Source: an uncultured Elusimicrobia bacterium
GTDB taxonomy: Bacteria; Elusimicrobiota; Elusimicrobia; 2-01-FULL-59-12
Length of the DNA: 64,000 nt
Direction of reading: 5' to 3'
Assembly (NCBI GenBank): GCA_963702895.1
Contig: OY969767.1
Location: 160,001 to 224,000 of the forward strand
Numbering within the stretch: position 1 is the first letter of the stretch; each line of letters begins with the position of its first letter. Shown here piece by piece: positions 42,764-47,187 of the stretch. The position numbers and the translations under genes were made by a program. A model generated the notes under the pieces. That model was not told the DNA's origin. It saw nothing but the letters and a program-made list of their open reading frames with translations, and searched no databases.

Positions 42764-44928
42764 AGCGATTGCCTGAACGTTCGTCATCCTCCGCGGATGG
42801 AAGCGGGGGATCTATCGTGATGGATCCGACAGACGTCTGGCGGATGGCGTCAAGGGTGCTCTTCGTTGTTCTCTGCTCACTGTTCGCTGTGCGCTGTCCC
42901 AGCTGGGCTGCCAATGAAGCGTATTACAACTATCTGCAAGGGATGTCGGAAGAGCGTCAGGGCAACACCGCCAAGGCGCTGGAAGCCTATGAAAAGGCCG
43001 TACAGCAGGATCCCGAGGCCTTGCAGGTCTATCGTGATCTTGCCGAGCTCCGCTTGCGCATCGGTCAGGCGGATGCGGCCCATCAGGCGGCAGAGCGCGT
43101 CAAAGAACTCGCCCCGAAGGACCCCATGTCCTATATCTTTCTCGGCAATGTGCGGGTGGCCAAAGGGGACCTCGCGGGAGCAGCGGAAGCTTATGAGCAA
43201 GCCCTCAAACTGGACCCCACCAACCTTCGCGCGTTGGAAAACCTAGGCAATTACTACGCGTTGATACAGCCGGAGAAGGCGCTTTCTTATTACGAGCGGT
43301 ACCTTCGAATCAGTCCCCGGGACGCCGATATCCTTTTTCAGATGGCTGTTGTCCATCACAAGAGCGGTCAACTCAGCAAAGCAGAGAAGTCCTATAAAAA
43401 GTCCATTGAGCTGGAGCCCGACCAGTTGGCATCGCATCTCGCTTTAGCGGACCTTTACGAGCAGCAAAAAAGCACAGCGGCGGCCATTGCCGAATACGTC
43501 AGGGCAACGGAGATCCAGGCCGCCAATGCCCTCATTCTCACCCGTCTCGGGAACCTGTACTATAGGAACGCTCAGTTCGACGAGGCTTGGGACACATTTC
43601 AAAGCGCTGAAAAGGCGTCCCCGAGCGACCCCACGGTCCATTATTGGCTGGCGAGGACCGCGGAGGAAAAGAAGAATTGGAAAGCTGCTGCGATCCATGC
43701 GGAGCAGGCTTGGGACCTCTCGCAGGACCCCCAATTCCTGCCTCTCGTGGCTTATTACATGACCCTCCATCGCCAGCCCGACCAGGCCGTCAAGTATCTT
43801 GAGAAAGCCAAGGAGTACGATCCGACCAACGCCAATATTCTCCTCTTCCTTGGGATGAATTATATGGACCTCAATAAGCCGGATCTGGCGCGAGAAGCTT
43901 TGGCCAAAGGCGTATCCCTGTACCCCAAAGACGCGCAGATGCGTTTTCATCTCGGGTCGGCAGAAGATCGCCTGGGGAATTTCAGCGCCGCCGTAGAGCA
44001 GTTTAAGGCTATTCTTGAGATTGACCCGAACAACACGCCCGCAATGAATTACCTCGGCTACTCATGGGCGGAGCGCGGAGAGAACCTGGAGGAGGCCGAG
44101 AGGCTCTTAAGAAAAGTGGTCGCGGCTGAACCGGAAAGCGGCGCTTATCTCGACAGCCTCGGATGGGTGCGTTTCAAGAGGGGGGATCCTTGCGAGGCGC
44201 AAGCGTACCTGCAGAAAGCCATTCAGTATGCTTCGGATGCCGTGATCTTTGACCATCTGGGGGACGCGTATATGGGTTGTCAGCATAGGGAAGCGGCCCT
44301 TCAGGCCTGGTCGAAAGCGATCACGATGGACCCTAAAAACCAGGTGGTCCAGAACAAGCTCCAACAGGAGGCCAAGAAGTTCCTCGATTCCCCGGAGGCG
44401 AAGAAATATCCTCTCTTTCTTGAAGGAAATTTTAAACAGGCACAGAATTTGGCCAGCACCTTTTCGCTCAAAGCGCGCCTGGGAAGGCGTAAGCTGGCGA
44501 CATCCGGCTCCCTGGCTTACGAACAGCCAGATGCGATGACCCTGGATGTTGCTGCGACCGAGAAAACCGCGGCGGCCAAGTTTTCCATTCGCGGCGCCCA
44601 GCGCCAAGTGGAGCCACCCCAAGACCGATGCCCTCTTTGTCAGATGGCCTTTGATGGGATGAATACGTTGACGGAGTTTCTTTCCGGAAGGCTGACGGCG
44701 TCCTTGAAGCCTGTGCTGAAAACCAGCGGCGGTCTGCGAACACAGTTTGCGAAGCCCAACCCCAGCGGCGGTAAGGACATGGTGGAAGTCGTATCCTATG
44801 ATTATGTGGAAGGTCTTTGGCTTCCTGCGGAGATGCGTCTCACCAACGCGACGACGGGCTGGTCGGCAGAAATTCAATTTTCAGACTGGGCCATTCAGCC
44901 CTTAACACACGCACCCTCTCCACCATGA
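42760..44928 (+). CDS. Periplasmic TPR-repeat protein with C-terminal LolB/DUF4292-like region
   Basis: Many TPRs, NYLGYSWAE..YLDSLGW..DHLGD motif; precedes ispE; start may be internal (42820/42844). Confidence 0.8.
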   Translation: MKRLPERSSSSADGSGGSIVMDPTDVWRMASRVLFVVLCSLFAVRCPSWAANEAYYNYLQGMSEERQGNTAKALEAYEKAVQQDPEALQVYRDLAELRLRIGQADAAHQAAERVKELAPKDPMSYIFLGNVRVAKGDLAGAAEAYEQALKLDPTNLRALENLGNYYALIQPEKALSYYERYLRISPRDADILFQMAVVHHKSGQLSKAEKSYKKSIELEPDQLASHLALADLYEQQKSTAAAIAEYVRATEIQAANALILTRLGNLYYRNAQFDEAWDTFQSAEKASPSDPTVHYWLARTAEEKKNWKAAAIHAEQAWDLSQDPQFLPLVAYYMTLHRQPDQAVKYLEKAKEYDPTNANILLFLGMNYMDLNKPDLAREALAKGVSLYPKDAQMRFHLGSAEDRLGNFSAAVEQFKAILEIDPNNTPAMNYLGYSWAERGENLEEAERLLRKVVAAEPESGAYLDSLGWVRFKRGDPCEAQAYLQKAIQYASDAVIFDHLGDAYMGCQHREAALQAWSKAITMDPKNQVVQNKLQQEAKKFLDSPEAKKYPLFLEGNFKQAQNLASTFSLKARLGRRKLATSGSLAYEQPDAMTLDVAATEKTAAAKFSIRGAQRQVEPPQDRCPLCQMAFDGMNTLTEFLSGRLTASLKPVLKTSGGLRTQFAKPNPSGGKDMVEVVSYDYVEGLWLPAEMRLTNATTGWSAEIQFSDWAIQPLTHAPSPP

Positions 44929-45758
44929 TTCGTCTCAAGGCTTGCGCCAAGATCAACTTCTTTCTTGAGATCACAGGCAAGCGTCCAGACGGTTACCACA
45001 CGCTCGAAACTGTTTTTCAAACCGTTTCCCTCGCCGATGAGCTCACTTTTTCGCCAGGAAGCGCACTGAGGCTCAGGTGCTCAGACCCCACCCTGCCTGT
45101 GGATGAGCGCAATCTGGTCATGCGCGCCGCGCTCAAGCTTCAGGAGGCCCTCCAGGAGCGGCGCGGCGCCAACATCTTTCTCAAGAAACTTGTTCCTAGG
45201 GGCGCGGGCTTGGGGGGTGGCTCAGCGGATGCAGCGGCTACCCTGCGCGGGCTTTTGAAACTCTGGAACCGGCGAACCGGGGAACCGGCGCTGAAGAAAA
45301 TAGCCGTAAGCCTTGGGGCGGATGTCCCCTTTTTCCTGAAGGGCGGGCTTTGCTTGGCGACGGGTATTGGTGAGGAGCTCAAGCCCCTGAAGCCACTCCC
45401 CAAGACCTGGATCGTCATCGTCTGGCCCGGCTTCGGCGTCTCCACGAAGGACGCTTATGCGAAAGTTCGTCTGCCTTTCGCCGACCCGCCGGTTCGCCGG
45501 TTCGCCGGTTCGCTTACACGACAACTTCCTGACCCGAGAACGAGTTTATTTAACCGCTTTGAGTCTCTCCTCTTCCCTTCTTATCCTGCCCTTCCCAAAC
45601 TCGAACAGGATCTCTTGGAGGCCGGCGCCGCGGCTGCGCTCATGTCCGGCTCAGGATCCGCGGTCTATGGCTTGGTGAGCTCACAGAAGGCCGGGCGGGA
45701 GGTCTTGGTTTTCCTTCAAAAGAAATATAATCACGTCTGGCTCGCGCACACGATTTAA
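44925..45758 (+). CDS. ispE: 4-diphosphocytidyl-2-C-methyl-D-erythritol kinase
   Basis: AKINFFL, RPDGYH, GAGLGGGSADAA, GADVPFF, MSGSGS. Confidence 0.96.
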   Translation: MIRLKACAKINFFLEITGKRPDGYHTLETVFQTVSLADELTFSPGSALRLRCSDPTLPVDERNLVMRAALKLQEALQERRGANIFLKKLVPRGAGLGGGSADAAATLRGLLKLWNRRTGEPALKKIAVSLGADVPFFLKGGLCLATGIGEELKPLKPLPKTWIVIVWPGFGVSTKDAYAKVRLPFADPPVRRFAGSLTRQLPDPRTSLFNRFESLLFPSYPALPKLEQDLLEAGAAAALMSGSGSAVYGLVSSQKAGREVLVFLQKKYNHVWLAHTI

Positions 45759-45770
45759 TCCCGGGTGGTG

Positions 45771-46222
45771 TGGTTCGACTCGGCCGCGAGGAAGGCGGCC
45801 TCGCTCACCATGGGCAGGCCGAGGCGAACCAGGGTGAGCGAACGAACCAAAGGGAGGGAGTCGAACCCTTGACATGGTTTGTGTACATGTTGCTATGTTT
45901 GGATAAATCCATCTATATAGGCGTTACAAGTAACTTGGAGCGCCGACTCTATGAGCATCGATCAGGCCATGGAGCCAAGCATGTTCGATCAAAAGGGTTT
46001 GAAAAATTAATATGGTCTGAAAAACACAGTGACCAGCAATTGGCTGAAAAACGTGAAGCACAAATTAAGAGATGGACTCGAAGGAAGAAATTGGCTTTAG
46101 CATCTGGGGATTTGGAACTGTTGATGCGTTTGTAGCTCTTTCTCGGAAATGATTCGACCTGCTACTCTTTGTGTCGGGTGGTGAGCGAGCCCATTCGGCG
46201 TTGCTCAGGGCGAGTCGAACCA
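45771..46222. mobile_element. Palindrome-flanked GIY-YIG cassette inserted at the tRNA-Gln 5' end
   Basis: Ends TGGTTCGACTC / GAGTCGAACCA (perfect 11-bp inverted repeat); tRNA nt 1-13 TCCCGGGTGGTGT duplicated at 45759-71 and 46224-36. Confidence 0.75.
45869..46135 (+). CDS. Small GIY-YIG nuclease (YhbQ/UPF0213-like)
   Basis: WFVYML...IYIGVTSNLERRLYEH...REAQIKRWTRRKK; TTG start with AGGGAGG RBS supplied by the repeat. Confidence 0.9.
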   Translation: MTWFVYMLLCLDKSIYIGVTSNLERRLYEHRSGHGAKHVRSKGFEKLIWSEKHSDQQLAEKREAQIKRWTRRKKLALASGDLELLMRL

Positions 46223-46912
46223 TTCCCGGGTGGTGTAATGGTAACACACATCCCTTTGGAGGATGTATTCCTGGTTCGAATCCAGGCCTGGGAGGTCTTT
46301 CTTAAAGTTGTTGATACGTAACGGATTTGGAAATTCGGAGTTTGGAGGCGATACGTTCTCCGTCGAGAAAGTGGTTCCGCGCCACTGAGGCGTCGGCGCG
46401 CCCGCCGAGTCGTAGTGGCGGGGAATCCTAACCGGGGGTGCCTTGGAGGCAGTTACCGGCATGACGTGTGATTTGAGCGTTCGGGCCGTCCCGTTACGAA
46501 ATGATTTTGTAACGGGGCCTTTCTGGGACCGCTGCAAGATTCGCCAGACAGCCGTGCGCGACCATTTGCCGGCACGCTTGGTTTTGTGATCTTCCTTATT
46601 GAGGGTTCGAGCGATCTGTTCTGACGAGAATTTCTGTGACGCTAATGCCTGAATCCGCGCTATCCATTTTGCTTCAGTCTCATGTGCGGCGCGACCGTAG
46701 GGGTTCTGTTGAAATCCGAACGGAACGCGCCCCTGAGGCGAACACGTGCGTGTGTCGAGCTTTTCAACCTTCTCTTCCGGCGGCGGAGCCGGATTCTCCT
46801 TTTCTCGCTTCATTCGTTCGCAAATGCTCGCTTGCACCTCCATTATTCGAAGACCACGTTCTTCCGCTGTCAGATCTCTTGGATCAATCAGTCGATAATA
46901 TGATCGGATCAT
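46205..46912 (-). pseudogene. Serine-recombinase DNA-binding (Recombinase) domain fragment reading into the antisense tRNA
   Basis: GRVPFGF..ETEAKWIARI..EQIARTLNKE..KRAGKWSRTAVWRILQR; no catalytic resolvase domain; GGAGG RBS. Confidence 0.6.
46224..46294 (+). tRNA. tRNA-Gln(TTG), CCA not encoded
   Basis: Acceptor TCCCGGG/CCTGGGA; anticodon arm CATCC-CTTTGGA-GGATG; T arm CCTGG-TTCGAAT-CCAGG. Confidence 0.95.
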
Positions 46913-47187
46913 ATGGCCTCCATAAAAATGGATAGAAACGGGTCGTGTAGTACCTTCCCAAAATGACAAAGTCAAATGAGCAATCCACCCACTGACCATT
47001 TGAGAGAACGTCGCCAAGTAACCGCTTACCTGTTTGGGGGCCTTATCTCTGGTGGAATCATTTGGTTGTTTTGTGCTTTTAGGTGTGGATTGCTTGCAAA
47101 AGCAGTTCAGAAGTTAGGATGCAGCCTATGCGTTCTATGTGATAGTGCCGTCGGCGCCGGACATTCGAATGCCAATTATCTCTCCTG

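Follow-up and report, generated by a model that had tools for sequence, protein, structure and literature searches.

Free-standing GIY-YIG homing endonucleases of the T4 Seg/I-TevI type are selfish genes located next to conserved RNA genes, and homing elements pass through a cycle of invasion, decay and loss. Ssn nucleases (cd10448), which are accompanied by NTS/SRM hairpins, were described by Chenal et al. 2025 (PMC11893778). According to that study, SsnA cuts single-stranded DNA upstream of the hairpin in a strand-specific manner, and its authors remark on an IS-like layout and a parallel with REP/IS200 (PMC11893778). The main text of the same paper makes no mention of tRNA or of a duplication and shows no mobility (PMC11893778). 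Repeats of the CGTC type, in four families, were described by Di Nocera et al. 2013 as REPs without a dedicated transposase (PMC3733652). A literature search, with most subscription journals outside its coverage, returned no description of GIY-YIG cassettes at tRNA ends or of their tRNA targeting; this targeting and the protein clade presented here appear to be undescribed.

The window is the whole 64,000-nucleotide stretch of DNA that was analyzed. G000 denotes the genome that holds it, other G-numbers denote related genomes, and L-numbers denote extracted loci. Ahead of a tRNA-Gln gene in the window lies a cassette of 465 bases (45759-46223), the sole gene of which encodes an 88-residue nuclease and is located between DNA hairpin repeats. 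An earlier note on this DNA had listed a 13-mer, hairpin units, the gene and the tRNA, and every one of these parts was recovered at its coordinates when the window was re-read. Two decayed half-units (45808-45831 and 46141-46165) were absent from that list; with them, the gene is bracketed by hairpin dimers. The features are, in window coordinates:

44926-45758, plus strand: host gene ispE from the ORF list, named in the earlier note and by its kinase motif; ATG at 44926, with the stop TAA (45756-45758) abutting the cassette
45759-45771, plus strand: left end of the cassette, repeating tRNA-Gln nt 1-13; unchanged in G007
45771-45810, minus strand: hairpin unit 1, minus-strand sequence TGGT-GAGC...GTCGA-ACCA, enclosing a smaller hairpin of 6 bp
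45808-45831, plus strand: decayed half-unit with 93% complementarity to unit 1 in its 3' part
45832-45868, plus strand: hairpin unit 2, containing an RBS-like GGGAGGGAG 8 nt ahead of the TTG start
45869 (TTG)-46135, plus strand: gene for a single-domain GIY-YIG nuclease of 88 aa, UPF0213-like by structure matches
46141-46165, minus strand: decayed inverse unit with core AATGATTCGAC, which can pair with the end of unit 3 and with tRNA nt 1-7
46179-46222, plus strand: hairpin unit 3, stopping one base ahead of the acceptor stem
46224-46295, plus strand: intact tRNA-Gln(UUG) with a U1:A72 pair, by the Rfam model
46205-47017, minus strand: serine-recombinase remnant (PF07508), directly on the 3' side of tRNA-Gln and outside the cassette

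The order is tRNA piece, hairpin cluster, gene, hairpin dimer, tRNA. The 13-mer at 45759-45771 is identical to 46224-46236, that is, to tRNA nt 1-13 on the Rfam model, and comprises the 5' strand of the acceptor stem and the 5' strand of the D-stem. The match reaches 15 nt if one mismatch is allowed, and by simple arithmetic an exact repeat of 13 nt would arise by chance within 1 kb with a probability of ∼1e-5. Terminal inverted repeats with perfect 10-11-bp arms are present at 45771-45781 and 46212-46222. The TTG start and 15 flanking nt of the nuclease gene are conserved in G007, and the core AATGATTCGAC of the decayed inverse unit is kept in 4 copies from 3 genera. The gene has a G+C content of 41% vs 57% for the genome, a value equally low in 0.18% of 5000 random windows. 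An Rfam search of the region returned the tRNA and nothing else, no promoter-like site was found at the locus, and the one terminator-like site matches chance expectation. In ViennaRNA, the left hairpin cluster folds (z -3.5 and -4.9 against shuffles), while single units are no better than shuffles (z -1.2 to +0.4) under an energy model that lacks sheared G-A terms, which makes the single-unit values uninformative. No RNA sequencing run was listed as containing this DNA, and three DNA sequencing runs contained short pieces only, none of them across a junction.

The nuclease has PF01541 as its sole Pfam match (GIY-YIG, E 1.6e-20), and its predicted model (pLDDT 96.9) is closest to solved structures of UPF0213 proteins; NCBIfam and PADLOC searches gave sub-threshold matches only. 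Tyr, Tyr, Arg, His and Glu occupy the usual catalytic positions and are invariant across nine relatives, and we take them to have the corresponding catalytic roles here. Between G000 and G007, the gene displays dN 0.22 and dS ∼2.3 (57 synonymous sites, near saturation), compared with dN 0.33 for ispE, and the protein is under purifying selection. The SsnA mutants Y6, Y17 and E64 match catalytic positions of the cassette nuclease (PMC11893778).

Comparison with relatives establishes that 45759-46223 is an insertion at the tRNA-Gln gene, for which filled and empty alleles exist. The empty ispE-tRNA-Gln junctions that the earlier note had suggested seeking are indeed present. A same-family sample of 10 other genomes yielded tRNA-Gln(UUG) in 7, and the junction is bare in five of these (TTTA/TTCCCGG, with the slash at the junction, in G003, G004, G005, G006 and G009), including G003, from the same genus as the window's genome, and G009, where ispE is still directly upstream. 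G007, from another genus, carries the same cassette with a 70% identical protein interrupted by an internal TGA, and a different gene start follows its tRNA. G008 has the right-hand hairpin only, ahead of both its tRNA-Gln genes, with a related gene (50%) located 3' of one. Homologues of ispE occur in 40 of 41 genomes, and a GIY-YIG gene is present at 3 of the 30 ispE loci inspected. The subclade gene (defined below) is absent from 7/10 family genomes and was found in G000, G007 and G008 only. The 5'-type junction pattern matched 6 genomes in a sample of 401 from the phylum, which left out G008, with tRNA junctions by listed sequence in G000 and G007 only. This pattern gave 0 matches in viral contigs, and the hairpin was found at 0/34 viral homologue loci. 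The cassette occurs as one copy per genome at this site, with no recent twin copy in G000.

The ends of the cassette are more conserved between G000 and G007 than the tRNA itself. Five end blocks of 26, 16, 15, 11 and 14 bases are identical at 82/82 positions, whereas fourfold-degenerate sites (12/22 identical), the tRNA (60/71) and the hairpin loops have drifted, which shows that the ends are under constraint. At its left end, G007 has the same 13-mer as G000, with a mismatch to its own tRNA at nt 7, and the probability that 13 neutral sites all stay identical is ∼4e-4, a rough value drawn from 22 sites. The 13-mer was probably carried by the element rather than freshly duplicated from the target. 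Alternatively, a fresh duplication may have been followed by one back-change, or the tRNA 7:66 pair, which varies within the family, may have changed later. In G044, three copies of tRNA-Gln piece, hairpin and gene lie inside 13 kb, an arrangement that points the same way, toward a carried piece. The target duplication is perfect in G000 and absent in four 3'-side subclade members (G008, G013, G351 and G329), which also lack the right-hand end; 16-nt repeats are present in a neighboring clade, and 3' cassettes of this kind at the loci analyzed display repeats of 16-20 nt.

Hairpin type is consistently linked to protein clade, a co-variation that the earlier note had raised. A quick first tree comprised 175 homologues, with motif classes defined after the flanks had been viewed. 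An SRM-like motif flanks 77/88 genes of one 99%-supported, Ssn-like clade (3.3 expected), and a variant core flanks 20/23 genes in a Patescibacteria-rich clade. The GAGC...GTCGA motif of the cassette flanks 4/4 genes of the window's group, 5/5 of an Omnitrophota-type group (Omnitrophota relatives being represented by a few loci only), 8/13 of a Bacteroidota-type group and 2/12 of a bare UPF0213-like group. It is likewise found beside 18 of the 88 Ssn-like genes (5.6 expected), which means that a different enzyme could be what moves it. In a second quick tree (79 rows, 91 columns), the cassette protein falls in a subclade of seven proteins from six genomes, with an SH-aLRT value of 84; the larger tree gave it a different membership, support is modest and the deep branches are unresolved. 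Within this subclade, the hairpin accompanies 7/7 genes and tRNA-Gln adjoins 6/7, the seventh lying at a contig end. A sister group of ten one-per-genome UPF0213-like genes from the same family displays neither (0/10 with the hairpin, 0/10 beside a tRNA). The subclade genes are located on different sides of two different tRNA-Gln genes. The earlier note took tRNA 5' ends to be the safe sites, but the 5' end is the minority location among the six tRNA-adjacent genes of the subclade (2/6, vs 4/6 on the 3' side). Elsewhere, GIY-YIG genes located just behind tRNA-Gly(CCC) were observed in one family (L116, L117, L125, L127, L129 and L133), where the hairpin motif was not detected; this group is possibly a settled copy.

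The hairpin stem keeps its pairing and not its sequence. Among 123 loose motif matches from 28 selected loci, a perfect 4-bp outer stem is present in 48, in 17 sequence types, compared with a mean of 7 and a maximum of 17 by permutation; the stems covary. From the inner GA/GA steps and GAA loops, sheared G-A pairs would be expected on one strand alone, the purine-rich one; this reading is based on mini-hairpin chemistry (PMC13037366), and such a fold would give a strand-specific signal like that of SsnA.

A precise register also relates the hairpin to the tRNA. In a junction set of 15 tRNA genes, chosen after seeing the data from loci hand-picked for nearby hairpins, a hairpin end meets the tRNA on 15 of the 30 sides. 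The register in 12/15 is core, 4 stem bases, one base and then T1 of the acceptor stem, read on the plus strand at 5' junctions and on the minus strand at 3' junctions; two pairs among the 12 are near-identical, and the other 3 junctions are off register by 1-3 bases. All of these tRNAs are Gln or Asn with U1:A72. Owing to the inverted-repeat nature of the acceptor stem, the same target is offered at each end of a tRNA gene, which explains how one clade can occupy either side. It had been proposed that the repeat core GGTTCGA mimics a tRNA T-loop, a suggestion that was rejected: the GG is part of the variable stem arm (17 types) and the junctions lie at the acceptor stem, not the T-loop. The acceptor-stem junction rule takes its place.

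Solo and dimeric copies of the repeat exist elsewhere in the genome, in support of the earlier note's reading. G000 contains 19 strict motifs, 16 of them outside the cassette; several form inverted dimers well away from tRNA genes, the second tRNA-Gln has one at a distance of 122 bases, and solo copies often bear a GTCA-like tag. Strict solo motifs number 19, 27, 7, 10, 33 and 5 (hand count; median 14.5) in the six genomes with a subclade gene vs 6, 1, 6, 0, 8, 5, 0, 1 and 1 (median 1) in nine where none was found, a comparison in which the 15 genomes are related and partly incomplete, the ranges overlap, and four genomes of the second group hold 5-8 motifs. No RAYT-type gene was found beside the hairpins, and the only Y1_Tnp match in G000 is a weak fragment with no such hairpin near. 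Three solo dimers (G000:C1:380474, 1836520 and 2112743) end directly ahead of an ATG, which may be the start codon of the neighboring gene.

Other tRNA-linked repeats were observed in G000. In G000:C1, 31/48 tRNA genes have a partial duplicate of at least 12 nt within 800 bases, compared with 94 of 2000 random windows. In many cases, hairpins of a different family interrupt the duplicate, frequently within the T-loop or where the D-stem meets the D-loop, and several such duplicates display a 2-base CG repeat. Hairpins of this other family interrupt a tRNA-fMet 5' relic (1579-1596) at 1579-1680 of the window, and a further dimer lies 80 bases behind tRNA-Gln within the frame of the recombinase remnant (46375-46425). 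The relic, previously read as a related event, is present and similar in kind but involves the different family. Four small GIY-YIG genes of a separate clade (G000:C1:1813690, 1813378, 1701167 and 580653) adjoin tRNA-Asn (two in tandem), tRNA-Ala and a tRNA-Ile/tRNA-Ala gap, and are candidates for mobilizing that family. G000 further contains two Ssn-like genes flanked by SRM motifs (G000:C1:554285 and 543369), and tandem arrays of tRNA 3' ends (G000:C1:1171696 and 2455472, minus strand) with period 120 behind tRNA-Val and 82 behind tRNA-Gln(CUG).

For the filled and empty alleles, conserved ends, covarying stems and junction register, the explanation we favor, and consider reasonably probable, is that the cassette is a minimal selfish element made up of hairpin dimers around a lone GIY-YIG gene, its spread helped by its own nuclease. 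Binding, cutting and movement would be attributed to this enzyme by analogy. From the Ssn precedent and DNA-hairpin chemistry, we infer that the enzyme would bind the purine-rich hairpin strand, folded with sheared G-A pairs, on transiently single-stranded DNA. Its nicks would then fall at the end of the hairpin and immediately 5' of the folded acceptor stem. GIY-YIG enzymes hydrolyze DNA and do not rejoin it; therefore, host annealing, gap filling and ligation would finish the insertion, for which the carried 13-15-nt tRNA piece may serve as homology. Insertion outside the stem would leave the tRNA whole, recombination between the two 13-15-mers could restore the empty site, and the gene-less dimers elsewhere would be non-autonomous copies. 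The internal TGA in the G007 copy is as would be expected of a decaying selfish gene. Given near-saturated synonymous sites, an old, vertically inherited insertion fits as well.

A different account, which we regard as unlikely, posits a domesticated Ssn-like nuclease that serves the host by cutting single-stranded DNA with hairpin tags, for example to limit foreign DNA uptake, with a cassette that is old, immobile, inherited and occasionally lost. SsnA lowers the integration of NTS-bearing DNA in Neisseria (PMC11893778), and the purifying selection on the cassette gene, with a divergence like that of ispE (dN 0.22 vs 0.33), would suit such a role; the broken G007 copy, whose ends are intact, would not. 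Conserved hairpins could be autoregulatory sites, but a host role leaves the one-base junction rule unexplained and is difficult to reconcile with a gene that is restricted among family genomes to G000, G007 and G008 and lies on different sides of two different tRNA-Gln genes.

It is improbable that the gene is a free-standing homing endonuclease which cuts the empty tRNA-Gln allele, so that the filled allele is copied by homologous recombination, with the hairpins belonging to a separate REP family and traveling as passengers. Occupation of this conserved site is patchy, and the broken copy fits an invade-decay-loss cycle, yet the 88-aa protein consists of the nuclease domain alone and lacks a DNA-binding module, and the hairpin type follows the protein clade. 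Since the tRNA is left whole, a site inside it would not be destroyed by the cassette, and homing alone leaves the occupation of both tRNA ends unexplained.

The least credible account is debris at an island hotspot, in which a shrunken integrative element left the 13-mer behind as an att-site scar and other means brought in the gene and repeats: large serine recombinases do end at this tRNA in G004 and G005, a remnant is present in the window and 31/48 tRNAs of G000 have local partial duplicates, but the duplicated 13-mers do not enclose the recombinase, in G007 the same cassette goes with another gene start behind the tRNA, G004 and G005 combine a recombinase with an empty 5' junction, and debris would not preserve 82/82 end bases.

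A role for the neighboring serine recombinase was rejected on the same two grounds, its position outside the 13-mers and the empty 5' junction in G004 and G005. A separate island at the 3' end of the tRNA is the probable origin of the remnant. The earlier statement that no integrase or transposase is present holds inside the cassette, but not for the adjoining sequence, given PF07508 on the tRNA 3' side. Within the family, islands with large serine recombinases appear to use the 3' end of tRNA-Gln(UUG) as an attachment site (L225 and L226, 1-1575).

Building on the selfish element favored above, a broader proposal is offered tentatively, as a possibility we hold at somewhat less than even confidence. 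The cassette may represent a transposon class below 0.5 kb with a hydrolytic GIY-YIG nuclease as its sole gene. The nuclease would read the folded shape of a single-stranded tRNA gene, pick U1:A72 acceptor stems (Gln, Asn) on either strand and join the hairpin one base upstream, with host repair finishing the process. Such enzymes might then be the missing mobilizers of transposase-less REP families.

Among known systems, the cassette resembles Ssn loci in its single-domain GIY-YIG protein of ∼90 aa (88 aa here, <150) and in its oriented flanking hairpin repeats, which also occur solo, as reported for Ssn. It differs in that the protein lies outside the 99%-supported clade containing G000's two SRM-flanked genes, used as proxies for SsnA, and in its GAGC...GTCGA hairpin core. 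Matches to the SRM pattern number 0 in 45700-46300 vs 147 in the genome, the strict motif being narrow (6/88 Ssn-like loci). With classical insertion sequences, the cassette shares terminal inverted repeats. It has the same catalytic fold as homing endonucleases of the T4 Seg/I-TevI type, as fold matches indicate, and is likewise a probable selfish gene beside a conserved RNA gene; unlike them, it is chromosomal, has conserved hairpin bounds, occupies either tRNA side and encodes a protein without a separate DNA-binding domain. As in RAYT/REP/REPIN systems, hairpin dimers bracket one small nuclease gene, and dimers elsewhere have no gene between them. The enzyme is a GIY-YIG nuclease, not an HUH Y1 tyrosine transposase, and a covalent strand-transfer step is therefore not expected. 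The earlier description of the locus as a GIY-YIG analogue of RAYT/REPIN agrees with the alleles, the clade-hairpin link, the solo copies and the lack of a RAYT gene; the concept itself has already been published for Ssn (PMC11893778), and propagation by the enzyme is presumed. What is added to the Ssn work is the filled and empty alleles, an exact junction rule and evidence for a carried tRNA piece. The nuclease-hairpin pairing known for Ssn extends to a second GIY-YIG branch, hitherto labeled "UPF0213, hypothetical", which points to a further set of very small nucleases that act on single strands with sequence or structure specificity and makes testable what spreads REP-like repeats without a transposase.
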